A stretch of DNA of 63,965 bases, the filler included, from Dirinaria sp. TL-2023a (lineage: Eukaryota), in the NCBI GenBank assembly GCA_051941275.1. It is 3 parts of 3 records of this genome, joined end to end, with 100 filler letters (N's around TTAATTAATTAA, not from the genome) between each part and the next. Parts side by side here need not be neighbours in the genome. Positions count along the whole stretch, not along the records: positions 1 to 22,638 come from JAVEBF010000219.1; 2 more parts are not named here. The stretch is one strand, 5' to 3'. Positions 3,978-19,815 of the stretch are shown here, piece after piece. The notes under the pieces were generated by a model. The model did not search any database, had not been told where the DNA came from, and saw only the letters and a list, made by a program, of their open reading frames with translations. The first letter of the stretch is position 1. Every line of letters starts with the position of its first letter. A program made the position numbers and the translations under genes.

Positions 3978-4051
3978 ATGATGACACGATGACAGGGGCA
4001 TGATGACAGGACATGATGACAGGATGATGATGACAGGATGATGATGACAGG
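3978..4051. repeat. Imperfect minisatellite, about 6 copies of (ATG)ATGACAGG
   Basis: atgatgacacg atgacagggg catgatgacagg acatgatgacagg atgatgatgacagg atgatgatgacagg read directly from the sequence. Confidence 0.85.
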
Positions 4052-4606
4052 GCATCCCTGAGATCCCGGAGAGATCCAAGCTCGCCAAAGCTCCAAATTC
4101 CCCGGCTCTACCAGTTACCTGCGTTAGTACGGAGTTACCCGGCTTGGCATCAAGCTTCCCCTGTCCGCTCTCTCGCCCTATCCCGCTTCCTCTAATGGCC
4201 GCCACTTGCTTAGGTAGAGATGCTAACTGAAGCACCAGCGTCATTGAGTTCATTTTCTCCGCTTTTTAGAAAACCAATTGACCTCACTCCTGACCTCATC
4301 ACCGCCTTTACATGGTACCTTAAGGTATGCCCAGAGAACTGTCCACCAGGGAACATCAGTCTGATTCGTGGAATCCGGCCAATGATCCACCCCGAAATGG
4401 AGGACTTCACTGTAGTTCCCAGCGGGTTTCAGTCGCATCAAGACGTCATTCGCTATGACTTAGATGGCGCCGACCGTCTTCCAAGCGACTACATAAATCG
4501 AGGCTCCTCCCGGATTCCAGGTAGTGAAAAGTTTTGAAGCCTGAAGTCTGTGAAAACCCCTATCAACCTTTCCCATACCTGTGGATTTCAAATCTCCCAC
4601 ACCACA

Positions 4607-4956
4607 ATGGACAACATTAACAACACCGCCGAAGACATCTCCAACAAAGCCGCGGGCCACAAGGCGAATCTTGCCAACCCAAGTACGTACCGCTCGTCTT
4701 TCTCTTCAATCATATCCCTCACCCCCTGAACTTAACCTAATTCGGCAAACGTTCAGACACATCTGAAGCCTCCAAAGCCAATTCCAAGGAGGTCCTTGAG
4801 TCACTGGATAAGCCCTTCTACGGCGACGAAGACCAGAATGCTTCCAAGAATCCCAACCAGGTTGCAGGAGGGTTGAAGGCCGCGATTAACAACCCAAACA
4901 ACACGGAAGCGGGGACGGAGGCGGCGCAGAAGAAGCTGGATAGTCTGAGTAGCTGA
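4607..4956 (+). CDS. con-6: Conidiation protein 6 (Con-6) family hydrophilic stress protein, intron 4683-4756
   Basis: Spliced product MDNINNTAEDISNKAAGHKANLANP|NTSEASKANSKEVLESL...KNPNQVAGGLKAAINNPNNTEAGTEAAQKKLDSLSS* carries two Con-6 repeats (GHKANLANP, GGLKAAINNP). Missed by the ORF track. Confidence 0.85.
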
Positions 4957-5946
4957 TTTGAGTCTAATTTGTCGAAATTCGAGTGTAGGCTAGATCAATA
5001 TCAACCGAATAGATCAGTAATTCCAATCAAAGGCTTCTAGGACAACTCGATCTTGTGTATGAATTTTTTAACATGCCGTAGGTCTAATCGTGATGGTTCT
5101 GGCACCTTCCGTCCAGTGTGTTCTCGCTCACACGGGCCATGACGTTGGCAGAGCATTGTATGTATACATCCGAGCAAATATTCCCTGAAAAAGAGAGAAC
5201 AAGAGAATAAGGGTCCAGGGATCAGGCAGAGACCCTTAAAAGTGACTGTTTCCTATGTGTCGGGACCGACGTCTAACAACAAGGAGCCTCGGGATGAATC
5301 AAATTGGCGAAACAAAAATGAAACATACTGTAGAATTCGCTTGATTGTGGACTACGGCGCTGAAGACATCGCGAATGCATGAAGCTGAACGATTTAGGAG
5401 CAAATGGTAGAAAGTATTGTTAGACAGCTGAACATCATGTCATAACCGATGAGTCAAGGTATGCATTTATTCAAGTCAAGGACGATCAGCACTGACCAGA
5501 AAGCAGCGACTTGAGCGCTCTGGAGCAGGAAACTCGTTTCTGATTCGTTACTGATGGAGTCGGGATGTGTTCAAGGCAGTGGGCATCTGGTGATAAGTTT
5601 TTATCTCTTGATTGTAAAAGAGTACGATGTGAACATTTGAGCTTATGATAACGAGATTAATGATCTGGAAACGATAAGACATGACAAGACACGAGAGTTC
5701 CAAGAGAAACTATACCAAGGAGTACATCATCGTAATTAAATCAGTAAAGCACACTAGGTTTATTGGTGAACAGAAAAAAATTCACAGAAACCTCCCTTTT
5801 CCTTTTCGGGTTCATCGATTTGTTTAGGAGCATTCTTCAGTCTTACCCTTCGTCCTGAAAAGCAGTATGACAGCTTTCAGCCGCTACACAGTGTCAATTT
5901 TCGTAGTACCTGACAACGGCTTACCAGTTGTTGTCCAAGCAATCCA

Positions 5947-7768
5947 TCATGCCTTTTTCCCGTTGACCAGAGCCTGGCTTGGCTGCTGCTGCTCTTGTTG
6001 CGATTGCATCTGCGCCAGCCAGTTCGGCGGCTTGATGCCAGTTTGGTCATCGATGGTGCTCAATAGTGGTGGTAAAGCCTGCAGAATATTTCTGATTGGC
6101 GCAGCCGAGTCACTGCCACCGGCATTCTCGCCGGTATTCCAAACAGTGATTTTCGGTTGTAGACCATTAATGGCTTTTGCGTTGGCTTGGGCCAGCTTCT
6201 CGTAGGTGTTGTTTTCGAGCATCATGTACTGAAGCAAGCCTTGTGGTCCACCAAGGACGGAGGCCATCTTCTCATAGGCTTTGGCCATCTCGGTGATTCC
6301 CTCTGCTTCCTTCTTCTTTGCATAGAAGGAGGCTTCGGCTTCTTTGGTGGCTCGGATATAATTCGCTTCTACCTCTTGCTTTTTTTGATAAACCAGTGCG
6401 TCGGCACCTTTGACCACCGCCAAGAACTTGGCCTCGGCTTCCTGTTGTTGCTTGTAAAGATGGCCATCAGCATTCTTGTTTTCAGCATACAGTTTTGCAT
6501 CAGCCTTTTCTTGAGCGGATTCTCTTTCGATCTTGGCATGTACAACGTCCGTTGCGCGCCTCTTTTCGAGCTGCATTGCTGCACGTCGAGTCTCGACGTT
6601 TTTCTGAAGCTCTGCATCTTGGGCTTCTGCTTCGCGGGTCGCTTGTATCTTTGCAAGATTGATGCCCATGTCCAACTTTGTTTGAGTGGTCGTGAGTTCA
6701 GCATCGGCCTGGGCCTTTTCGCTCTTACGTTGCGTCTCGAGAACAGCGGTTGCAGCATCAATTTTACTGATCTCCTGACGGGTTTTGCCGCGCTTTTCCG
6801 CCTCACCTGATGAATTAGCAAAGATTAGCAGTGTTTCAGAATATACGAGCACGACTCGCAGATCCTGTTCTCCGCGCACAGACGGCGTCCTGGAATGAGT
6901 AGTGACGCTTGAACGCATTGAAACTACCTTCGGGTGCGTTTGGCCACAAAATGACATTCATCAAGTGCCCACACTCGAACTCGGTCATGTCGTTGGGTTC
7001 ACGCTATGGCACGAAACACAAAGGCAGGGCCGAAGAACACCTACCAATATTCCCTATCATTTGCGCATTGGCGACATCAATCTTGGCTTGATTGGAAGCA
7101 CCTTCGTGCGCTTTACGGCTGAGAAACTTGAAATACTCGCTACCAGCCGTATCTTGAAGTTCTTTGACATTGGCATTGTATCTGTACTCAGTTAGCACGC
7201 TCGACAGGTTGGAAATTTCCGACGGCTGAAAAGGCACTGCAGGCTGGAAATGGTCTTTAAATAACAGAATCTGTTCGCGATGGGCAAGGTTCAGAAGGGT
7301 AGCTCACATTCGAAGACCAAACTGGTTCAGCTCGCTTTGCACATTCTCAATGACTTTTGTTTTGAAGACTTGGCGCTCTTTGAAGATCTCTTCCATAGTC
7401 ATGCCTGAGACTATGACTCGCGTCTCTCCTTCTATGATACCTTTGACGATATCCTGGACGTGATTCCGGCCAGTCGCCGTGGCCTCGTGTTTTTGAGCAT
7501 TCGCAACTTTCCCGGTGAGAATCTTCGCATATTTGCAGAGAGCTTCAATGTGATCATCCGGACCGATGGTGAAAACTGCGGGCAAGGAGAACTGTAGTTT
7601 CTCTATGGTCATCGCTTGGAGAGTGATCTCGAAGTCGAAGGGACTGATAGAGATCCTGCTATGTTTCTGCCATGGATAGACCCATGCTTTCTTGCAAATC
7701 TTAACGTCCTCAATGCCACCACCTGTGACAACAAGGTACGAATTGGCGTCAGAGACATTGTACCCCAT
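5947..7768 (-). CDS. floA: Flotillin-like SPFH/band-7 protein (exons 7768-7308, 7181-7045, 6806-5947)
   Basis: SPFH N-terminus (YLVVTGGGIEDVKI...FSLPAVFTIGP...IIEGETR...GLRIYNANVKELQD), an Ala/Glu-rich coiled coil and a C-terminal NAKAINGLQPKITVW. Splice phases are consistent. Confidence 0.9.
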
Positions 7769-8938
7769 ATCTACAGCACGATTTCAGGCGTTGGGTAGTC
7801 AGCTGGACCCGGTTTTCTTGCCGGCCACAGCAAATGAAGGATCTGTCTTTAATAGCCACTGGGCTAATAGATAGCAGACTGTTCTCAATCAGATTCACAA
7901 GCCAGAACAAGGCCAGATAGGACCGCAGATTTGTTAGTCAATGCAGCAGGTAGTGAGAAAGTGTAGCCATTTTATATCTGTAAGATGGGAGGCTGATGTC
8001 TACGTTAACGATGGCCCAAAAAGCCTCGTCTTAGATACCATGTGATCCCAACAATGCAGCATACCGTAGATAATGCCGCAAGCTGTAGTAGTGTTCCCAT
8101 GAAGTGCCCGTCCCCAACCTTCCTGAGGTTCTCGTTCGGTTCTAAATGTTCTAGTTCGTTTTCCGATTTCAATCCCACCAACAGGTTCGGCAAGCCAAGC
8201 CTAAGCCTTCCACTAATCTTTTCTTCCGACCGAGTCTACTTACCTCCCAACTTAGCCCAAAACCTCTGTGATTATTTCTTTGAAAGATCCCCCATAAATC
8301 ATAGCTCTATCTGGCGTGACCTTAACCACGAGGTATTAGTAGTAGTCCTATGCTCTCTGGCCGGAAGTAGCTCTCTCTCCTAATTGCTGCGTTCTCAAAA
8401 CCTGAGGTCAGGGAAACGTCGGCTTCTCAGTTCTCACAGCCTCGTGCCGATGGCGCAAGGCTGGGGTTGACCCCAACATTTAGATAAAATAGCGGCCGCA
8501 TGTCGAGTCTGCAAGCCATCGTGGTGTGAGGCATTATCCTCGCTAGTCGTTGGATGTTGTTAGACATACTCGAGCGCTGTAGGCTTCAACCGTTGCTGCC
8601 TTGCTGATCCAAAGCCCATGTGACTGCGTTGGTTGCTCAACTCAATTGCTGCGCGACCCGGGCGGCTCGAATCAATCTCCGCCTTTTTCTGCAGCACCGT
8701 CGAGGCAGTCTCCTGGTCGCACTAGTAGTTTCAATGCACATTAGTGAAGTATGTAGGAAGCCAAAAGAGCCTCGGGCGCGACACTGCATGACATACTCAT
8801 CCGTGTCTACAAATCTTTCATCTACCTTAGTCTTACCAGAAGCGCTTGGCTGAAAGAGTCTCCCTTCATCTGCAACCCGTCAAAAGAGCTCTATGACCCC
8901 ACATTGTGAGTCATCTACAATCGCTGCACTATCGCAGC

Positions 8939-9568
8939 ATGGAAAAGACAGGATCCGAAGCTCCTCCACCATCATACTCTGAAAGCCTTTCCGCGCCTCG
9001 GCCTTCGAGCGCGCTCACTGGCGCCGTCGATACTCATTTCCTCCCTCATGTACACAGCGCCATCGTTAACCAAATAGCCTCGACAATCCTTGTCGTGGTA
9101 CCATCAAATGTCTCAGCCCTGAGTCGAACGGCTGAAAGTCCTTCGGAGAAAGAATCCACCCCCTCAGCCTTCCCTGGCGAAACCTTCGTTGGCTTTTCTG
9201 TCTCGCCCACGGCCATCCGCCTCTCCGGCGCAGAAAATAGCCTTGAGTTCTGGCGACGACCCGCAGTCTTGAAGGAGCTAGAACACCGGCTGCGGAGGAC
9301 GCTCGAAGATGAAGGTTATTCAATTGTTCACAGAACGCCTAAACCGCAGTCGAACGCTACCATAGCGGGTTCGCGCAACGTCGACTGGAAGAGCCAGGAC
9401 CTGAAGGTCCTCGGCGATGGCGAGGCAAAGATGTCTGCGGAGGTCGAGGAGATGTGCTTGCGGATCGAGAACGAGATGGGGCTTTATGAGACGAGGACAG
9501 GGAAGGCTGTTATCATTCGAGTTGAGCTTGGGATACGAGAGCACCAGGATACAGAATGGATTGAGTGA
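8939..9568 (+). CDS. Hypothetical fungal protein with an N-terminal PPSY motif
   Basis: Uninterrupted 209-aa ORF from ATG at 8939 with protein-like composition (LEFWRRP...EEMCLRIENEMGLYETRTG). Confidence 0.6.
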   Translation: MEKTGSEAPPPSYSESLSAPRPSSALTGAVDTHFLPHVHSAIVNQIASTILVVVPSNVSALSRTAESPSEKESTPSAFPGETFVGFSVSPTAIRLSGAENSLEFWRRPAVLKELEHRLRRTLEDEGYSIVHRTPKPQSNATIAGSRNVDWKSQDLKVLGDGEAKMSAEVEEMCLRIENEMGLYETRTGKAVIIRVELGIREHQDTEWIE

Positions 9569-10253
9569 GCACTCCCCATTTTTGACCATTGGAAAATCAT
9601 CAAATAAAGGTCAATTGCCTAGAAAATTGGTCAGTATATAGATCTTGAAAATTAGACTTGCAAAGGGGCTTCCTTTACGTAGGATATGCTCCCTCTGCCT
9701 TACTTATTTTCATCAATTGCTATACCAGGCCCCCCAAAATCGCTTTCCACGCAGTATCGCGTAGTGCAGTATCTTAATTTCACACTTCCATAATATTATG
9801 GGAGCTCTCCGTATCGATATGATAGTGATAGACCCATGCTGTGTCGAATAGCCCAAAGCCTCTCCTGCTTCAAGTCGTCAGATCGTAAGTGTACAGTATC
9901 TAGTTGCTCTGGATTACCATGTATGATAAGTGGATCTGCCAATTGCGCGCTACTCTGATGTCCAGAAACCACAATTACGTTTCAGAGACTTTGACAGTGA
10001 GTAGCGAGTGGCGCTCCTGAAGCATGGCCTGCTCTCATGACAGGATCTTGCAACAAGCATCGTAAAGATACTTGAAACCGCGTTTGCAAATTGAAAAATT
10101 ACATGAAACGAGACTGTAGAAGACATCTCTGACCTAGGACTATACAAATCGCGTAAGCATTATCGAATTCCAAACATCATTTGCCGAAGAGCGCAATTGC
10201 AGAATCCTCTTCCGTTCATGAAGTAGGCAATATCAAGAAGTCAATGAGATAGT

Positions 10254-11442
10254 TCAAGATTGGCTCTGCTCTACCATCTGAGCAGCTTTTTCCGGACGCA
10301 TTGCATTCCCAACCAACCTTCCAGCGCGGTGCCTCAAGCGATTCTGCCACCACATCGGCATAGCCCTCAGCGGCCACGCAAGCCAGGCAGCGGCCTCGGG
10401 AACGAGAACAATCCCACTGCTGCCGCTCAGAATCTTCTGAACCACTTTCTCAGCCACCGTCTCTACCTTCTGCATCGGCATGAGAAATTTATCAGCCACT
10501 TTGACGGTCTTCGTCATGCTCGTTTCCGTCCAGTTGGGCATCACGCACACCGTGCGCACTTTCGGCGCATTGTAAATGGTAGCCAACTCGGCCGCCAGCC
10601 CCTCGTGGAAAGAGAGCGCGGCGGCCTTGGTGCAACAATAATCCACGATCTGAGGCGTGCTCCCGACTGCGGCTGTTGAGGCGACCGTTACAACTGTGCC
10701 GTGGTTGGCTTTGACCATGGAAGGCAGGAATTCGCGCACGAGGCGGAAGTGAGAGAGGATATTGACATCGAAAACGCGCTGTACTGCAGCATCAGAGGAG
10801 TTGATGATGGCCAAGCCCGAGGCTGTGCCAGCGTTGTTGATTAGGATCGTCGGATGGCCGAGAGTTGACCGGATGGACGCGGCGGTCTCGGTCACGGCTT
10901 CTGGTGAAGTGATGTCGCAGGTAAAGTGGTAGATGTTTGGTCCTAAAAGAACGGTTTAGAAATTTTCGAAGACAGTTGACGCTAGGTTGAGCATACGGGG
11001 CTCGAAGGTTGGAGGCTGAATGTCCAGCGAAGCGATCTTGCAACCCTTCTCTGCCAGGAGCCACGAGATGTGCTTCCCTATGCCATCGCTACCTCCGGTG
11101 ATGATGACCACTTCTCTGATCCAATCATACTTCGCCTTCTTCCAATTGTCCTGCGAGCCTCTACTGAGGAAGCCATTGACCGATCGAGCAATCCCGATGT
11201 AGAGGAGAATCTTGAGCCACTTCAAAGCTGCTGTATAACGTATGGAAAAATCTTGACCTTTGCGCGTGTAGTGCGCGACAAGAAGCAAGGGCAAGGTCAG
11301 AGCGGGATTCAAGGCGGTGTTCTTCACGATATGACCGACGACGTCGGCTGTGAAGCCTAGGACCCAGTCGTCAGTGCAATCGATCGACAATGAGAGCTTT
11401 GGACTAACCTTCGCGCGGCAACCAAGTTCTTCTAACAGACAT
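10254..11442 (-). CDS. Short-chain dehydrogenase/reductase (17-beta-HSD11/RDH10-like, membrane-anchored), 3 exons
   Basis: TGGSDGIG nucleotide-binding motif, LINNAG, catalytic Ser and YCCTK (YxxxK). Exon 1 is MSVRRTWLPRE followed by GTTAGT. Confidence 0.9.
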
Positions 11443-12175
11443 CTTCGCCTTCGGTAGGTAAAAGTTGCTACATGATCTCTTCCTTCGTCTTCACTGCTTC
11501 AACTCTTCAAGACACCGGACAGCGGATCGGCACTAGAGCAAAGTGCCGAGGTATCTCGTACACTACTCAATGATTCATGATGATTTTCTAGAGTCCTCAT
11601 GGCTTTGGTGCTCTCCACTATGTTCATCTTCAAAGGTCCAACCGCTCATCATAGCATCAGGCGATCGCCTAGAAGCAATTTTATGAGTATGACAATTTCT
11701 TGTTCAGGATAATCTAAGGTATGTATGTACGCACTCCAGGGGTACCTTAGGGTTCTACTTCAATAGGTACCTTATGGAGTACCCGCTTAGCCACTACGAG
11801 GCCCGCGAGGTACCAGGGATTTAAAGTTGTGGCTGAGGCGGCAGATCGCCATGCGCTGTGGCTTGGTTGGTGTTTCTTCTTGTTCGCGCGTCATTTCCTT
11901 GATTTGCTCCTGAAGATGCCCAAACCCAAACAATTCACTCTTTGTCATTCCTTCTTCTGTAACGCTTGGCCTGTTTCCACAGTACATATTCTGAATCCTA
12001 GCCACCTCTCCGGCTTGAAACCTTCTTTGTCGTATACGTATTCTTATTTTCTTAGGCCACGGAGCTTTATGACATTGCCCAAGCGTGTTGCTGCCTCTGT
12101 GTACTTCATTCTTTAAGGTGCTCGTACCCAAGTCACACCATACGAGCACCTCGTGACAACGGCTAGTTGTTCACC

Positions 12176-13878
12176 ATGTTCAGATGCTTATCTACCTTGA
12201 TTCTAGTAGTGATACCTCTTGCCGCGTCGGCCGCTGCTCCAAAACCGGTTGCAGCAGCACTCGCCGAGCCTCCCTTGATAACCCCTTCGCCCTCGCAATG
12301 GGATCCTACAAGAACGTTGAAGTCTAGGAGAGGTGTAATCAGCGACATCGAAGGCGATGTGAACTCAGTCCTGTCAGGGCTAGGGTCCGACATACCCTCC
12401 TACGTGGCATCCGGTGTACCAAATTTCTTCCAAAACTTCCCTACCGGCGACAATGTGAGAAGCAGTCTTGGTTTGGAAGATAGTCAAATTGCGGCGCTCC
12501 CAACGCAAGTTCTGAACGTGCCGTATGTGTGCCAACTCATGAACAGTATCAGTTGCTGAAATATATTGTAGGGGCTATGGAAACTGGACAGACCGAGGCT
12601 GGAACCTACGTTTTCACGGCAACGTCTTCAAACAGCCCAACATAAGCGAGTCAAAACTTGATGACCTGGCAAACGGGTTCCTCATAGGTACTTCTGTTCA
12701 GTCTCTGCCGCCTTCCCAGGCCTCTCAAGCAAGAAATCTTACTGCCGAAATCTATGTCCTTCAGCAATCTGATCAAAACGTTACTTTCAATATCAAACCG
12801 GCCCCAACTGCTGGGGCGTCTGGCGAGCAAGGCGGTGGTGGAGCAATCACCCCACCGGGCGGAAGCCAGCAGATCAAATTTCCGACCCCCACGACATCGG
12901 AAGGAGACTTTGATGGTTTCGTACAAATCAATGACAGCGGGCTCATACCCGGCAACAGCACTCATGATATTCAGCGCATGAACGTCTACACTCAGGGAGA
13001 CATCAATGGCAACGCAACAGCATACCTTGTGCCCCCCACAGGCCTCACGGTCATTTCCGACATTGATGACATCCTGAGGGTGACCAAGATCTACGAGCCC
13101 AAAGAAGGCTTACTCAATTCCTTTGCTCGTCCTTTCACGCCATGGATGAACATGCCGGACATTTACGCCAATTGGTCCCGCAGCATACCGAACTTCCATT
13201 TTCACTACTTGACAACCACCCCTGAGCAAGTGACCCGCAACTACATGGACTTCATCTACAAGACCTACCCCGGTGGATCTTTCGATACCCGCCCCTTGAA
13301 CTTCAGTGATGTCAGCGCTACGCTAAGTATTCGCAAATTTCTCTTGCAAAAGATCTTCATGACCTTTCCGCAGCGGAAGTTTATTTTGGTCGCGGATACC
13401 AGTAATAGCGACGTAATGAGGGATTACCCAGAGATGGTCACAGACTTTCCAGGACAGGTCCAATGCATATTCTTGAGGAATACATCTGCAACGGACGACG
13501 GTGATAAATTTCCGTACGATACGAGTGGGTTCAAGGGTCTCAACACATCAACGTATATGTTCTTCCACGTGCCTGTGAGTCAATATAGAACGTTCTTTTG
13601 CTTCCTTATTTGGTTTTTGTGCTTGCCCAAGCGCAAGACTGGGCTGCGATGCTAATGCCTTGCAGGACGATCTTTCGCATCTCGACATTTCCAATGGTAA
13701 TTGTCTCAATACTACGATTGGTCAAAACGTGACGTACGGAGAGCAAGGCCTTCCATTCGGCATCAATCTTGGCGGCGGGAAGCCTAACGCAGCCACGGGA
13801 TTGTCTGTAAGCTTTTGGACTGCGTCCGCAACAGTGCTTGCTTTAGTCTTCTGGGGCTTCAGCTCAGCAACGCTGTAG
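12176..13878 (+). CDS. Secreted, probably GPI-anchored APP1-like (DUF2183) phosphatidate phosphatase-family protein; introns 12523-12571 and 13575-13665
   Basis: Signal peptide MFRCLSTLILVVIPLAASAA, HAD-like ISDIDDILRVT motif, FPQRKFILVADTS and a hydrophobic C-terminal tail. Confidence 0.8.
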
Positions 13879-15267
13879 ATGATGACTGCGGACCAAGCCA
13901 GGCGCTAAAGGGTGGCGTTGGATGAGCACAGGTTTAGGACTCATCCACAAGGCAGTGGAAAATTGTATGCGTAGCGTGAACGTCATCAATCAGTGGTTTC
14001 TTCTCCCATTGGTCGATGGATGACTTCTCTTGTACTGTAGGTTTGCAGTCTCCTAATCTGGCTTCTCCAGGCTGAGAAGCCGATGGATGCGGTTGGTGCC
14101 TTTCTTGCCTTTCTCCCAAGCCCAATACTGCTGCAGATACGATGGTACCAAGGCACCAGGACTACTTGACTTCCTTTGCTAGCGATACAAGGCAGCATGG
14201 TCGGTTCAGTAGACATTCGACCGTAATCCACAGCGGTGTCCCACATCAGGCCCTGGTCAAAGAAATGTGGAATTCATCCGCCCTACCGGTCAGCTGGTAT
14301 CTTACCTCAAGTCGGGTAGACCATCACTACCCAATGAACATACATTACCTACACACATGGATACGTGTAGGAAAGGCACAACCTAATCGGTCGGATTTCC
14401 CCTCTTGGGATTACCGGGCGTACATACTTCAGTGCCTTGAGCGATGTACAGCAGTACCTTATTCAATACCCAATTTACATGTAATTCACTCTACCTAGGT
14501 ACTTGGTACTTGAACGCTGTATCCTCGGCCGCATCACCATCTCTCGACTACCTTAGAACATGACCCCGGCTGATAGGGATCTCTTTCAACATACACCGAT
14601 AGGTATCCAGGTGGGGCGTGTATCGAAATCTTCCTTTATTTGTCCCACCGGACTCGAATAGTCTCGTCATGCCGGCTCCGCTCTGGTAACGGATGTCTAT
14701 TCCGTGGCTGTGTTCTTTCAACTTGGTGTCGTCACCGAAAAGTAGTTGACATTCCATTCATCCACCGGTGCAGTTGAACGCATACAAGATCCCTCTTGCA
14801 CCCTTTTTTTCCTCTTCTTTTTTACATCCGTCCTTTCACCTTCTACTTCCGCAACTACTCTGTCACTCTTGCAGCATCTTCAGCCTTCCGACCAGGCTAC
14901 AGCAACAGTAAGTGTTCTGCCTTCTGCTTTGCCATTGGGCCAGGCTTCGAGCATCTACTTGAATAAGTAGAGTGACCCAGCGCTTCTTCCCCAACTTGCA
15001 CCTTGTCACTATTGCGGATCCCAGGCAGCTTAACATAAGCCAAAGCCTGGAGTAGTTCACTGCTTCCTTGGTCTTCATCCTCCAATAAAGTATTTTAAAC
15101 TCACCCATCGCACTGGCCTATCTTGCACCTCTTTTGGTACCTCTCGAGAATGATTCGCTTCTTCCCACCAATTGCCTGCACTGCGTTAGCAGACTTGGCC
15201 CATTGCACTTTGTTTTCTGATTAGCCGAGTAGGTTCGTCTTTCGACTATCCACGATCGTTCAACATC

Positions 15268-16611
15268 ATGAAAGCAACCGCCATTCTTGCTCTCTTGGGC
15301 ACCACTATCTTTACTATCCTCGACGTCAATGCTCACGCAGTGCCCGAAGCTGGTAAGCGCCTTCCTTCCTCACTTCGCAGGATTGAGGTTTACGTTGTCT
15401 GACACTCCCCGCTAGTGGTAGAGGTTTCAAACGGCCAACTTGGTTTCCCGGAGGCCAAGCGTGACAATGAGGTCCTTCATCCTTGTTGGCGGGCTCCCGA
15501 CGACTCAATCCAGTGTCCAGTCGTCAAGCGTGATGCTGAGGCTCAGCCATGCTTTGATGGCCCTGGCGGTATCGTTGCTTGCCCTGTCAAGAAGCGGGAA
15601 TTCTGTTGGGAAGCCAATGATGGCCGTAAGTCTTATACAGGTGTCGTTAGCCAAATTACTTGCCAACGGTCTTAGAAATCCACTGCAGCAACCCTCCAGA
15701 GAAGAAGCGTGAGTTTTGCTGGGAGGCCGAAGACGGTCAAATCCATTGCAGCAACCCTCCCGAGCAGAAGCGCGAGTTTTGCTGGGAGGCGCAAGATGGT
15801 CAAATTCATTGCAGCAACCCTCCTAAAGCGAAGCGCGATGATCCTTGTTACGAGGCTCCTGATGGACAGTCGGTCCATTGCCCGGTCGTCAAACGAGTTG
15901 ACGGTAAGTGCATCTTCCTTTGAAACCGCAGCCTCCGAGTTTCTTTTCCGGTACTTTTCATTCAGTTGTGTGCTTTCTTGTGCTCTTTCCCCCTTGGTGT
16001 TTAGCATCGTATCATTCTCGACTTCTAATCACCTAAACCTCTCCAACGTATCATCGTACGTAGGCACGGCATCATTGCCCGTCATCCCTGGCACATCGAT
16101 ATACTGTAGCAAATGGTACAATGTCACGACTCCAGATCCTCTTGCTTGCAGCAAAGCTCTCGCTGCAGGTAACATTGGTATAGACCAGTTTCGGGCACTC
16201 AATCCTAGCGTCAACAACGAGTGCACGAATGTCATGGTGGGCTATGCCTATTGTGTTGGATGTAAGTCGCTCCACCTGAAAGCGTGGCCATGGCTAACAT
16301 CAACTGTGGCCAAAACCCACGGTTCTTCCAAGAACGGCACCAAATCATACACCAATGCCTCTCCTACGTCAACAACAGCAGCCTGGTATAATCCCATTGC
16401 AAAATCCGCGGCTTCCGAAATCACTACTGCTCCTGGTGATCCGCGTTTCTGCCTCCATGGCAAAAGATGCGTCACACCTCCCAAACGGACGCGACATCCC
16501 GCATTCGTAGAACCCTTCCGAAAAACGGATTTCGCTGGCTGGTTCGCCGCCACAGCTCTGTTGACCGCCGAACCTGCGAGCACACCTACTGAGCGGACGG
16601 AGATTACATGA
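15268..16611 (+). CDS. Secreted Kex2-processed repeat precursor (six Cys-x9/10-Cys peptides) spliced to a C-terminal LysM domain; exons 15268-15352, 15416-15625, 15676-15903, 16064-16611 (3' end uncertain)
   Basis: Signal peptide MKATAILALLGTTIFTILDVNA. Three phase-1 GTAAG...TAG introns restore one frame. KR-delimited repeats such as EFCWEAEDGQIHCSNPP are followed by the LysM signature CSKWYNV...C...IGIDQFRALNPSVNNECTNVMVGYAYCV. Confidence 0.8.
15711..15836 (+). repeat. Two adjacent 63-bp coding tandem repeats, plus an intron-split third copy from 15598
   Basis: gagttttgctgggaggcc...aagcgc (15711-15773) and gagttttgctgggaggcg...aagcgc (15774-15836). Confidence 0.9.
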
Positions 16612-17635
16612 TCATGGACCCAAAAGCAAAACCCAAGTGCCTGCAAGCACAAACCCTGGAATTTATCAAGAAATCACAGACGTACGAAATGGCAATGTCG
16701 GATTAGCCGGACTCACTGCAAACCTTGGTCCCTTTTTATTTTGATTTCCATCCCTTGTACAATATAGCTAATATGGTCGTTGTCTTTTTTCGTTCTAGCA
16801 ATCTGAAAAGTTTTTTTCTTTCCACGCTTTGCTTTCGTCTCATTCTGAATTCTGATATCATCCTTTGGAGGAACCTGCAGCTAATGCTTGGACACAGATA
16901 CCGCAGCCGCTGAAACCTGAGCATGCCGGTTCCTGACCAAAACCCGGAACACAGCACTCGGACGTGCTGGTCACATAGGTGTCCTAGTGTATATGGATGG
17001 ATGGTGGTTGCACGGAGCATATTTCGCACCTCTGCTTTCAATTCTCTCTATCTAGCCTTCTTCGCACATATTCGCCTGCTATATAGCTTTTGAAAAAAAA
17101 ATCCAAAAAAAAAAATCCAAAGAGACAAGATTCAAATAGAGCACGGATACCACGCATCTTTCCGGTTTTTTTTCTCTTTTCTTTTCCGGTCCCCCTATAT
17201 GCACTACCTCGTACTCGTACGAGTAGAGTACCACCCACATCTACTCATGTCGTGTTTGCAAGGCATCTAATTTCCCAAACATACGAAAGAAAAAACAGAA
17301 AAAAAGGCTTCGACAACCATAAGTATTTCTTCCCTACCCTACCCACCTACTTTACCTACAAAGTAAATCCCCTCTCCCCTCTCCTAAACGCACGCACCAA
17401 AGCAGAACCTACAAAAAAACCCGTGTCCATTGAATTTCAATTCAATCAAACCGATGCATCCAGATCCAGCGCAATGATTGATCTAATGAAGTGAATGCCC
17501 GCTTCGCAAAAGCCCCCTTCCCCCAAATAAAAAGAGAAGAAGAAAACGCCCAAAACCACCTGTTCAATAACCTTAGGTCGACCCCCCTGACCGGGTAAAA
17601 AAACCCCCATGAACAGATAGAACAATCCACGCACT

Positions 17636-19815
17636 CTAGAACGCAGTTCCATCCCCCCCTCCCCCAGCAGCAGCAGAACCGGCACTAACGCCGCGATTCA
17701 TCCACCCGGGCATCCAACTCCCTCGATTCGCCTTCTTGCGCGCCTTCTCCCGTTCCCGTTCCCGCTCCTCCTCCTCCTGCTGTTGCTGGTGCTGGTCCTG
17801 CAGGCTCCTGCCCTCGCCTCCTCCTTCGCGCGCGTTCTCCTGCACCAGCCGCAGCGGCCGCAGCCGGTTCTGCGTCATCACCGCGCCTCCGTACTGTGGG
17901 CCGAGCCCACTACCGCCTCCGCCCCCACCGCTACTGCTCCGGGGCGGGGAGCTCGTGCTGCCGACTTCGAGCTTGTCGTTGTTGTTGTTGTTGTTGTTGT
18001 TGGTGCTGCCGCGGTCGCTGAAGGTGCTGTTGGAGCTGCTGCCCGGGTTGGGATTGGAATTCGGGTTAAGGGCGGAGCCTGAAGCGGCGCGGGAGGTGGC
18101 GGTGGTCGTGATGGTTGAGGGTTGGGTGGTGGTGGAGGTGGAGGCGGAGAAGAAGGAATTGCGTGCCCCTGCTGCGCTGCCCACGGAGGGTGATAGACGA
18201 GGCGACATCAACGGTGACCCGCCTGATGGGGGCCCGCGGTACATGTGGGTCACGAGTGGGGCGGCGCCCATGGGGGCCGGCATGTCGGATTGCGAACGGC
18301 GGTGTGCGTCGCGCACGGCTTGCGGGCGGGCGATAGGGACGCTTCGCGCTGTGGAAGGGTCTTCGGTGGGAGGAGCCTCGGCTGTAGGTGCTGCTGTTGG
18401 TGGTGGAGTGGAGGTTGTGGTTGGAGCTGCCGGAGCGATTTGGCTGATTGGACGCGGTTTCCGAGGGCCGGCGACCACGGAGCGCGCGCGTTGCAGGAAC
18501 GTCGTGGGTTGAGGTTCTTCGTCTTTGGGTGGTGGAGGAGGCGGGAGTTCTTTGTTGGTGTTGCCCGATGATGGAGGGCGGGCTTTGCCTGACATCAGGT
18601 CCGGGTTTTTCTCCAGCACGTTTTCGAATTCCTTGTGCTGCAGCAGACGGCCGATGATGCTTTCTACGTAAAGGCTCAGGGCTTTGTTCTGCTCTCGCAG
18701 TGATTTCGTTTCCAATTCGAGCCGGCGGTAGTTCTCGCTTTCACCTTCGGCTGACTCAAGTTCTTCGGCGAGGGATCCCAGTCCGGAGGAGTTGTGCATC
18801 ACATCTGTCTTGCTGAAGTCACCGTTGAGTGTTTTTTCACTTAGAAGAAGCTGGAAGCTTTCGTTGTCCTCCATTAATCTGGCATTGGTAATGCGCGTTT
18901 CTAGTAATGTCTTCTCAAGCTCTTGCAATTTCCCTCCGCCGGCATTCTCGAGCTCGACGGCTTTTATTTGCGCTTCAGCAAGCTCGAGCCGTAATGATTC
19001 GATAAGCTTATCTTTGGACATGGCCAGCTTCGAGTTGTTCTTAGCATCACTTGCTGTAGTAGGTGAGACAGGGGCGAAGTGACCATCTGCTGATGATTTG
19101 CTTCTCAAGCTTGCTAGAAGATGTCAGCAAAATATTCTTTCAGCATGATGCATGTAACCCTACAAGGCCTGGATGGAGATCTTTCTTCATTGGCCGTCAT
19201 CTTCACCTCCCGCTGAGCCAATACGTCCTTAAGCCTTTGGATGACAGCCTGCTGCTCCTCTGCTTTGGCGGTTTGCTCAGCCTTATCACGCACCATAGCT
19301 GACTGTTCGGAGTCGAAGAGATCTTCCATCTCCCGCTTTTGCCGCATGGAATGGACTTTCTGATCTTCAAGATCATTGATCTGGGCTTCACTCTCATGCA
19401 TTTGCTCTTCAAGCTTCCCTTGCTCCTGCAAAGACTCGTCCAACTTCATTTGCAGCATCTTCAATTGTCGCTGATACTCTTCCGAAGCAGTCTCTGCCTT
19501 CTCGACTCGACTCCTCAGCTCTTCCATCAAGGCATTGTGCTCCGCCCTTGCATCATCATCGCCAGGTTCATCTGAGACATTTGCGTTCATATTGAGGAAG
19601 CTTGTATTGGGCGACGGTCTCTTGACGTTAGGTCTTACTGCTTTCTGCGTGCCATTTGATGCTTTGAACGAAGGCGATCGCCCATCTCCATTTGCGCTGA
19701 GGGCCGCGGAGTTTTGGCGGTTCGTACCAGAGGGACGAGGAGAGCCGGAAGTAGTGGATCCTTTTGAAGGCGTTGAATTCGAAGGGGGCTGAGGCCTCCT
19801 ATTGACACTTGCCAT
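17636..19815 (-). CDS. Conserved fungal coiled-coil protein with low-complexity C-terminus (one intron at about 19163-19114)
   Basis: ORFs of 233 and 490 aa joined across a short intron. Heptad coiled coils (LLETRITNARLMEDNESFQLLL; EQNKALSLYVESIIGRLL) and poly-N/G/Q/E tracts. Confidence 0.75.

Follow-up and report, generated by a model that had tools for sequence, protein, structure and literature searches.

A gene of a lichen-forming fungus joins Kex2-type peptide repeats to an optional LysM domain by splicing

Gene structure at the locus

Dirinaria is a lichen-forming ascomycete, and in Dirinaria sp. TL-2023a (NCBI GenBank assembly GCA_051941275.1) we analysed a gene in which short cysteine peptides bounded by Lys-Arg (KR) pairs, of the kind found in Kex2-processed repeat proteins (KEPs), are followed across an intron by a LysM domain. 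The window, i.e. the whole stretch of DNA that was analysed, has a length of 63,965 nucleotides (nt) and is joined from three parts of three genome records; all coordinates are positions in this joined stretch. The gene is a spliced eukaryotic gene on the + strand. Its exons 15268-15352, 15416-15625, 15676-15903 and 16064-16611, with GT..AG boundaries, give an open frame of 356 amino acids (aa), and this protein is identical to the NCBI model Q9191_002283, a metagenome-assembled genome (MAG) hypothetical protein of the same fungus that is recorded on a contig of 22,638 nt, a length below that of the window. Taken together with assembled RNA contigs (X1 to X3, described below), the locus has the following features:

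14774..14907 (minimum extent), + strand: 5' untranslated exon (RNA contig X1 record 1)
14908..15232, + strand: intron of the 5' untranslated region (UTR), 325 nt, GTAAGT..TAG (loose end of RNA contigs that start at 15233, together with the sequence)
15233..15352, + strand: exon 1, with the ATG at 15268 and a signal-peptide-like N-terminus (sequence, hydrophobicity)
15353..15415, + strand: intron 1, 63 nt, phase 1 (RNA joint in X1; intron at the same codon in the related locus L003)
15416..15625, + strand: exon 2, which spans the pro-region as well as peptides 1 and 2 and breaks off halfway through peptide 3
15626..15675, + strand: intron 2, 50 nt, phase 1, within a repeat unit between DG and Q (RNA joint in X2 and X3)
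15676..15903, + strand: exon 3, running from the second part of peptide 3 through peptides 4-6 and the last KR to Val-Asp and the leading base of a Gly codon
15904..16063, + strand: intron 3, 160 nt, phase 1, the splice from KEP part to LysM, with CTAAT at 16025-16029 (X1 record 3)
16064..16261, + strand: LysM part of the last exon, 198 nt, entered in phase 1, a divergent four-Cys LysM (homology, fold)
16262..16611, + strand: Ser/Thr/Pro/Ala-rich tail, in-frame read-through to the stop codon at 16609-16611 (open frame; likeness to the tail of the related protein P0004)
15904..16897, + strand: alternative long intron, 994 nt, GT..AG, with CTAAT at 16881-16885 (RNA joint in X1, X2 and X3)
16898..17082 (end approximate), + strand: alternative terminal exon, completing the split codon and adding six codons, with the stop codon at 16918-16920 and then 3' UTR (RNA contigs)

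The untranslated first exon was recognised in X1 record 1, which carries 134 letters before 15233, the final 30 of which match 14878-14907 exactly. The protein begins with MK and a hydrophobic core of 15 residues that starts at residue 4, is the most hydrophobic 15-mer of the whole protein (mean Kyte-Doolittle value of 2.11 over residues 3-18) and is followed by VNA-HA. By hydrophobicity this N-terminus is a predicted secretion signal; N-termini of a similar type are present in the related sequences L003, L006 and P0154.

The last KR occupies residues 171-172 and is followed by Val-Asp and the split Gly codon, after which intron 3 starts with the donor G/GTAAGT at 15903/15904, contains CTAAT at 16025-16029 and ends with TAG at 16061-16063. 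A sequence-only reading of the window had proposed that the repeats are spliced in frame to the LysM domain in just this way, with VD-G behind the last KR, a donor at 15904, a branch point near 16025 and translation from 16066 through ...AYCVG, and each of these elements lies where that reading had placed it. The splice itself agrees with the deposited model, with an RNA contig of a relative and with the phase kept at other loci. The same reading had seen neither a start nor a signal peptide that would belong to the LysM exon alone. Indeed, intron 3 is devoid of ATG codons and within the LysM frame no ATG occurs before 16234, a position behind three of the four cysteines, so the LysM module cannot start on its own. 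The end of the feature, set at 16260, has to be revised, since the frame stays open to the stop codon at 16609-16611 and a tail of 116 codons had been left out.

Searches of the window with both exons (tblastn) revealed no second copy of the LysM or repeat exons. A further frame of 311 codons is open from 15676 to 16611; it reads exon 3 out of step with the peptides and goes on across intron 3 and the LysM. This frame was considered as an independent open reading frame (ORF) and rejected for want of conservation, because in the related loci L003 and L006 it extends upstream for no more than 41 and 13 codons, respectively; it is probably an accident of the repeats.

Transcript evidence for two splice forms

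Transcripts were examined as assembled contigs from four RNA-seq runs of one lichen metatranscriptome sample, placed on 14900-16950 at a likeness of at least 90%. Their actual likeness to the window is 93-97%, and they therefore evidently stem from a close relative of the window fungus and not from this genome. Removal of intron 1 is seen in X1 (joint 15351/15415, skipping 63 letters, GT..AG). Removal of intron 2 is seen in X2 and X3, where the joint 15624/15738 skips 113 letters, corresponding to the 50-nt intron and one 63-nt repeat unit, and a loose end in X1 agrees with this joint; either the relative lacks one unit, or the assembler has collapsed it.

The donor behind the last KR is used in two ways. 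In X1 record 3 (178 nt), which covers 16063-16219, the LysM exon is preceded by 21 letters that match 15882-15902 with two mismatches, both synonymous by codon position, and match nowhere else in the window; the 15903/16064 junction postulated by the sequence-only reading is thus found in RNA, in a contig of a close relative from one of the four runs. The second joint, 15901/16897 with one letter between and 54 letters on its shorter side, is present in X1, X2 and X3, that is in three of the four runs. Allowing for a C-to-T change at 15902 and a shared G, it resolves to 15903/15904 joined to CACAG/AT at 16897/16898. The intron removed spans 994 nt, has canonical GT..AG borders and a CTAAT 11 nt ahead of its AG, and its removal drops the LysM exon and the tail, leaving one completed codon and six more before the stop at 16918-16920; the contigs of this form extend about 132 nt beyond 16950. 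Both junction types carry the T at 15902, as would fit a single locus. A cassette form in which 16261 is joined to 16898 would be in phase as well, but has no support among the contigs. The LysM part is thus optional through alternative splicing, and its delivery together with the peptides is not obligatory, because the same donor is also joined to 16898. Of the co-delivery system proposed from sequence, the form that carries both modules stands, but as one of two forms, and its cyclic peptides and a target in a host or competitor are putative.

The repeat peptides

Seven KR sites precede the LysM domain and delimit six KR-ended segments of 20-23 residues with two cysteines each, spaced by 9, 9, 9, 9, 9 and 10 residues. 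After removal of the basic residues, the peptides would comprise 18-21 residues with isoelectric points of 4.05-4.65 and charges of -2 to -5. Three of the six segments are near-identical 21-mers derived from a tandem array of 63 nt (2.6 copies, 88% matches) at 15676-15838, and in all, three peptide types are present within the single precursor. The repeat core is CWEAxDGQIHC, with D-G-Q two residues before the second cysteine. Dipeptides of the Ste13 type (X-Ala or X-Pro) are found at the start of one of the six peptides, namely peptide 2 (DA-EA-QP; DA-HA-QP in L003).

A KEP is defined by at least three similar peptide units between dibasic KR sites, and such units are present here; the gene thus fits the sequence definition of a KEP, with cleavage by Kex2 as a prediction. 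Among the sequences searched, the CWEAxDGQIHC family was found in records of lichen fungi only, and a search of the ESM Atlas with the repeat region gave no usable match. Because the peptides are acidic, a role as classical cationic antimicrobials seems unlikely; our preferred guess is that they function in signalling.

A divergent LysM domain

A search with the 65-aa LysM exon (P0003) against 1.84 billion representative sequences (phmmer) detected 851 proteins at E<=1e-3, of which 219 reached E<=1e-10. These relatives are led by proteins with multiple LysM domains, and most of the best 150 matches contain three to eleven matching stretches. Pfam LysM (PF01476) was recognised in 10 of 15 scanned proteins, with E-values from 2e-7 to 2e-55; in two of the proteins, P0015 and P0114, the stretch matched by our query overlaps the Pfam LysM stretch. 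The five scanned proteins without PF01476 are the window protein, P0004, P0073, P0092 (these three being the closest relatives) and one protein of 2827 aa, and the exon P0003 by itself matches no Pfam family at E<=0.01. This miss is a failure of detection by one model rather than a structural criterion.

In the alignment, the four cysteines and the NP...C.N...GY.YC part are in register with canonical fungal LysM repeats, and the window domain retains all 19 residues that are invariant in its subfamily, the four cysteines included. The subfamily differs from canonical repeats in a loop (PDPLAC, PDPFAC, PDDSAC or ADNMAC) that replaces GD(T/S)C and is two residues longer. Its members alone, taken as a profile, find LysM domains of fern chitinases as best matches in the PDB (5bum, E 0.0055; 4pxv, E 0.025), and the four cysteines align with those of 5bum; with canonical repeats added, E-values down to 1e-9 are obtained, and AtlA, LytE and Ecp6 are matched as well. 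A search of the PDB with the single exon sequence gave a chance match only (E 0.83).

An AlphaFold model built on an alignment of 39 rows, canonical LysM repeats among them, has a mean per-residue confidence (pLDDT) of 95 and a predicted template modelling score (pTM) of 0.81, with strands at 17-19 and 61-63 and helices at 27-35 and 39-45. Its top three Foldseek matches in the PDB are LysM domains (probability 0.96-0.99, template modelling score on the target 0.72-0.77, root-mean-square deviation 1.8-2.2 over 50-52 columns, E 0.04-0.075), and most of the other matches are LysM-containing proteins; weak E-values are to be expected for 50 residues. By homology and by modelled fold, we therefore regard the module as a genuine but divergent four-Cys fungal-type LysM domain, the class that the sequence-only reading had assigned to it.

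The loop between the first strand and the first helix of LysM domains contacts the sugar. As Pfam misses the module and its ligand-binding loop has an insertion of two residues, binding of chitin is not assured and a particular ligand should not be taken for granted. An N-V-T sequon is located at 16120-16128 (residues 194-196) in the first LysM strand; it is shared by the group A loci described below and by P0073 (WYNVT), and is absent from P0004 (WYNVP) and group B.

Conservation in other lichen fungi

Combinations of such repeats with a LysM exon were also found outside the window. The repeat exon retrieved two models from Gyalolechia, both deposited predictions available at the protein level only. 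P0154 (G. fulgens, 324 aa) comprises a signal peptide, five ...HCWEAxDGQ[IV]HCS... units, one differing unit and, behind the last KR, the second half of the LysM; P0155, a model of 160 aa from Gyalolechia sp. 1, shares these repeats and stops eight residues past its last KR. For what seems to be the same gene in sister taxa, the models of 324 and 160 aa thus disagree, a sign that ab initio prediction is unstable here.

A pattern scan of lichen metagenome contigs yielded 20 loci, and at 15 of them KR-bounded cysteine peptides of the CW/Y..DGQI.C type lie directly upstream of the LysM exon; at the remaining five (L016-L020), no such repeats were found upstream of the LysM. The 15 loci represent two genes, group A (L001-L005 and L015, n=6) with 57-60% and group B (L006-L014, n=9) with 55% LysM identity to the window. 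Both groups co-occur in four assemblies (JAABUZ, JAABUS, JAABUU and JAABUW) and may be two paralogues in one fungus rather than genes of two species. Within group A, the divergence of LysM exon plus tail is 0-2%, which leaves too few changes for a test of selection, and the introns have diverged no further than the exons.

For one locus of each group a splice model is in frame throughout. In group A, L003 encodes 621 aa with at least 13 KR-bounded cysteine peptides. Its exon 1 closes with ...NAVPEAG, the codon at this boundary corresponding to that of the window, and its last KR is followed by Val-Ser, a phase-1 GTAAGT donor, an intron of 109 nt, a phase-1 acceptor and the LysM; behind the LysM come a phase-1 GTAAGT, an intron of 50 nt and a tail of 102 aa. 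In group B, L006 encodes 302 aa with three peptides, a KR, six residues, a phase-1 donor, the LysM, a phase-1 GTAAGT and a Pro/Ala/Ser-rich tail of 121 aa. In both loci the KR lies 3-7 residues before a phase-1 donor that is followed by a phase-1 acceptor, and since a stop closes the LysM frame upstream before any ATG is reached, the LysM can be translated only via the splice. The alternative terminal exon has counterparts too: window 16850-16990 aligns with L003 and L002 with CAGCTAAY, ACACAG and a stop codon in the same columns, and a skip form of L003 would also end seven codons past the junction. The layout, with its junctions in phase, thus recurs in two genes of the lichen metagenomes and partly in the Gyalolechia model P0154.

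The number of repeats varies, the frame of L015 being 111 nt shorter than that of L003 in the repeat exon (L003 about 4019-4999). At L003 3752-4025, three successive units each have their own short intron between DG and Q, an intron that is present only once in the window (15626-15675). Because the three units share the intron at the same codon, the repeat unit was therefore duplicated together with its intron.

Relatives without repeats are informative about the origin of the layout. P0092 (Acarospora aff. strigata) consists of a signal peptide, a linker, the LysM and an acidic tail, and in L016 a signal peptide of its own precedes the LysM, behind which the same donor lies; both are devoid of repeats. 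In group B, the sequence that leads up to the LysM (...PPPAPTNAGTSSSC) has near-identical counterparts in L016 and P0092; the place taken by the repeats is therefore a plain linker in other genes.

The region behind the LysM domain

Past the LysM, the window frame runs open for 116 codons before the stop at 16609-16611; Ser, Thr, Pro and Ala account for 48% of them. Open tails are also found in P0004 (151 codons, no intron), L003 (102) and L006 (121), the window tail being a read-through; at about 3 stops per 64 codons, we estimate the chance probability of any one such open tail at less than one in a hundred. The tails of the window and P0004 share a motif around two cysteines and ...P-A-x-V-x-P-x-x-K-T, and their local Smith-Waterman score of 67 (shuffled, 37.8+-6.9) was reached by one of 500 shuffles, while BLASTP found no match between them (E 57). 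The score of the window tail against that of L006 was reached by 375 of 500 shuffles.

A second GTAAGT donor lies at 16262, followed by CTAAC and an AG at 16331-16332. Joining this donor to the nearest AG, 16331-16332, gives an immediate TAA, and the window tail therefore requires read-through. Phase-1 GTAAG[TC] donors occur directly behind the LysM in four genes, with the donor or intron at 16262-16332 in the window, 5188-5237 in L003, 5185-5234 in L006 and about 5172 in L016; P0004 has no such donor and its frame reads straight on. The calculated LysM-tail protein has 184 residues, 19.7 kDa and three N-x-S/T sequons.

Proposed function and alternative explanations

The fusion of peptide repeats and LysM is real, conserved and alternatively spliced. 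With 851 matches to the LysM exon, an RNA contig across the junction and recurrence in phase in two other genes, the arrangement is beyond chance. In our view this single Dirinaria gene probably, though by no means certainly, encodes a secreted polyprotein of peptides whose LysM-tail part is optional by splice choice, and it probably evolved from a plain LysM gene. The signal peptide would take the precursor into the endoplasmic reticulum, with a short pro-piece and the six acidic two-Cys peptides following. When the donor behind the last Lys-Arg is joined to 16064, the LysM and the Ser/Thr/Pro/Ala-rich tail are added, for a total of 356 aa; when it is joined to 16898, only seven codons are added, for a peptide-only precursor of about 180 aa. 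Kex2 would then cut after each Lys-Arg in the late Golgi, Kex1-type trimming would take off the basic residues and each peptide would close one disulfide loop, steps that are modelled on Kex2 processing in the fungal secretory pathway as described in parts of PMC6339444, PMC7329392 and PMC8528282. In the long form, a free LysM-tail protein starting with Val-Asp-Gly would be released alongside the peptides. Since a KR directly precedes the LysM in every locus examined, this predicted release by Kex2 is a sound inference. The LysM would probably bind a glycan that contains N-acetylglucosamine, for example the fungus's own chitin or bacterial peptidoglycan, although its changed loop leaves the ligand open. 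As to its origin, the gene probably derives from a plain secreted LysM gene, similar to that of Acarospora, whose pro-region gained and multiplied Kex2-bounded peptides.

Several points weigh against this interpretation. Kex2 cutting, the disulfide loops and glycan binding are steps that we infer, and the RNA contigs belong to a close relative of the window fungus. The junction to the LysM is carried by one contig of 178 nt from one of four runs, with only 21 upstream letters; contig depth cannot give the ratio of the two splice forms, and in principle each junction could stem from a different paralogue of that relative. None of the contigs of the four runs covers 16220-16896, where the tail and the 16262 donor lie. 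Since splicing of that donor to the nearest AG brings an immediate stop, the window gene may produce no tail; the score of the window tail against the tail of L003 is not significant, being reached by 45 of 500 shuffles. For the LysM, a Pfam scan of the window protein (P0001) matched no family at E<=1, LysM included. Furthermore, the canonical repeats in the 39-row alignment make the AlphaFold model lean towards that fold, and a model from 11 rows was unusable (pLDDT 55).

Alternatively, the LysM protein might be the real product and the repeats a pro-domain removed by Kex2, similar to those of Kex2-processed pro-domain (K2PP) effectors, with released peptides that lack a function by themselves. 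Acarospora P0092 and L016, in which a linker free of repeats stands between signal peptide and LysM, indeed demonstrate that such a gene can do without the repeats, and effectors with N-terminal pro-domains ending in KR have been described (PMC8528282, in the part available). We nevertheless consider this unlikely, because CWEAxDGQIHC is kept nearly letter for letter in Dirinaria, Gyalolechia and group A, though the LysM domains of the window and group A are only 57-60% identical, because the units have multiplied to at least 13 copies in L003, and because a transcript form with peptides but without LysM exists, whose terminal exon is conserved. If the peptides themselves are the product, they could resemble alpha-factor-type pheromones that act from fungus to fungus, with the LysM exon as an unrelated passenger. 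Two-Cys KEP pheromones with G-Q before the second cysteine, e.g. RFCHLPGQGCSK in Xylona, are reported in the part of PMC6339444 available, and the D-G-Q two residues before the second cysteine and the Ste13-type start of peptide 2 and its L003 counterpart recall them. The peptides are, however, twice as long as the pheromones cited there, with cysteines spaced by 9-10 rather than 6 residues, and one precursor contains three peptide types, with Ste13-type dipeptides in one of six. Alpha-pheromone precursors, as characterised in part from that source, hold near-identical peptides of about 9-13 aa with Ste13 dipeptides after each KR, a pattern not seen in this gene. Literature on pheromone precursors in lichens, consulted at index level, mentions no such gene, and we judge this explanation quite improbable.

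Inclusion of the LysM might also be mere splicing noise or an artefact of annotation, the peptide-only gene being functional and the LysM and tail decaying within a long intron. This idea would account for the skip joint in three of four runs against one for the LysM joint, for a model (P0155) that stops right after the repeats and for the failure of Pfam to detect the LysM. Yet the LysM frame is intact with all 19 subfamily-invariant residues, the four cysteines among them, keeps its phase relative to the exon before it in three different genes and is followed by open tails of 100-150 codons in four, which would not be expected of decaying intronic debris, and we hold this explanation to be very improbable. 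Extremely improbable, in our opinion, is a precursor of the dikaritin type, i.e. of an ustiloxin-like peptide synthesised on the ribosome and modified after translation (RiPP), made by a gene cluster. Its layout of signal peptide and KR-bounded repeats would be of the right kind, and lichen fungi are reported, in the part of PMC12048977 available, to hold UstY-type clusters with unknown precursors; on the other hand, no DUF3328 (UstY), tyrosinase or methyltransferase was found among the 14 long ORFs scanned around the gene, and the conserved cysteine pairs suggest simple disulfides.

A more far-reaching version of the optional-LysM polyprotein, which we put forward only tentatively and regard as doubtful, is that of an old, conserved lichen 'switch' gene for symbiosis signalling, in which a single promoter and a single splice donor choose between acidic disulfide-loop peptides alone and these peptides plus a free LysM for a glycan other than chitin. 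If this were true, the LysM with its changed loop might recognise a wall glycan of the alga or of bacteria in the partnership, the CWEAxDGQIHC peptides would belong to a family of symbiotic signals peculiar to lichens, and the splice choice would couple or uncouple the signal and the glycan binder.

Returning to the secreted polyprotein as such, its significance lies in the combination. Secreted peptides and LysM proteins are two main tools of fungi toward partners and hosts, and this gene joins both in one precursor; to our knowledge, almost nothing is known about either in lichens. The arrangement has been kept in several lichen fungi, with a LysM part that appears to be regulated by splicing, and it would illustrate how peptide cassettes of several copies can be gained in the pro-region of an otherwise plain gene for a secreted LysM. 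The gene also provides peptides that can be synthesised and a small domain that can be tested on photobionts, on bacteria and on the fungus's own wall. For annotation it follows that domain scans overlook this LysM subfamily and that ab initio models differ between close species.

Relation to known systems

With KEPs as described in parts of Le Marquer et al. 2019 (PMC6339444) and Umemura 2020 (PMC7329392), the gene shares the signal peptide and near-identical KR-bounded peptides, and, as for most KEPs, no cluster of modifying enzymes lies nearby. It differs in the folded LysM and long tail that are spliced behind the last repeat and can be omitted by splice choice. No characterised fusion of KEP and LysM was known to the sequence-only reading, and we found none described: literature on Kex2-processed repeats with LysM, on Kex2 in lichens and on lichen LysM effectors, at index level, describes no such gene, and the word 'LysM' does not occur in the text of PMC6339444. 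The combination is not without uncharacterised candidates, however. Table S2 of PMC7329392 has 30 KEP rows with a Pfam LysM match (3 from Ascomycota, 2 from Chytridiomycota, 25 from Mucoromycota), known from the table entries; the part of the paper's text available does not discuss them. Likewise, the part of PMC12048977 available reports no repeated precursor for the lichen RiPP clusters.

A precedent in layout is Hum3 of Ustilago maydis, in which, according to the part of PMC4617103 available, tandem repeats with putative Kex2 motifs are also followed by a folded secreted domain. The repeats of Hum3 are amphipathic and repellent-like with 31-36 aa, whereas those of the window are acidic two-Cys peptides of 18-21 aa; its domain is a hydrophobin and not a LysM, its species is a basidiomycete plant pathogen, and alternative splicing is not mentioned for Hum3 in that part of the source. 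Fungal LysM effectors and related domains (Ecp6, 4b8v; Mg1LysM, 6q40; fern chitinase, 5bum/4pxv) resemble the modelled window domain in the order strand-helix-helix-strand and in the four cysteine positions, and the effectors are secreted, as the window protein is predicted to be from its signal. The window gene, in contrast, has a single domain, a PDPLAC-type loop with two additional residues in place of GD(T/S)C and no recognition by Pfam, and while LysM effectors sit directly behind the signal peptide, its LysM is located behind a Kex2 site. K2PP effectors such as SnTox3 (PMC8528282, in the part available) also have a folded domain after an N-terminal region ending in a dibasic Kex2 motif; here, however, the 'pro-domain' would itself be a multi-copy cassette of conserved peptides that can be expressed without the folded domain.

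Genomic neighbourhood

Among the 14 long ORFs scanned between 3542 and 24293, DUF3328 (UstY) was found in none, in a scan that short or intron-split genes could escape, and the only domains recognised were Band_7, a short-chain dehydrogenase and an APP1 phosphatase. The neighbours that carry them (7304-13655 and 17636-19123) encode a Band_7 domain, a short-chain dehydrogenase on the - strand and an APP1-type phosphatidate phosphatase on the + strand. A minus-strand ORF of 495 codons near the gene has no Pfam match and lies in a stretch that looks low in complexity. The whole window contains 176 N and has a G+C content of 49.5%.

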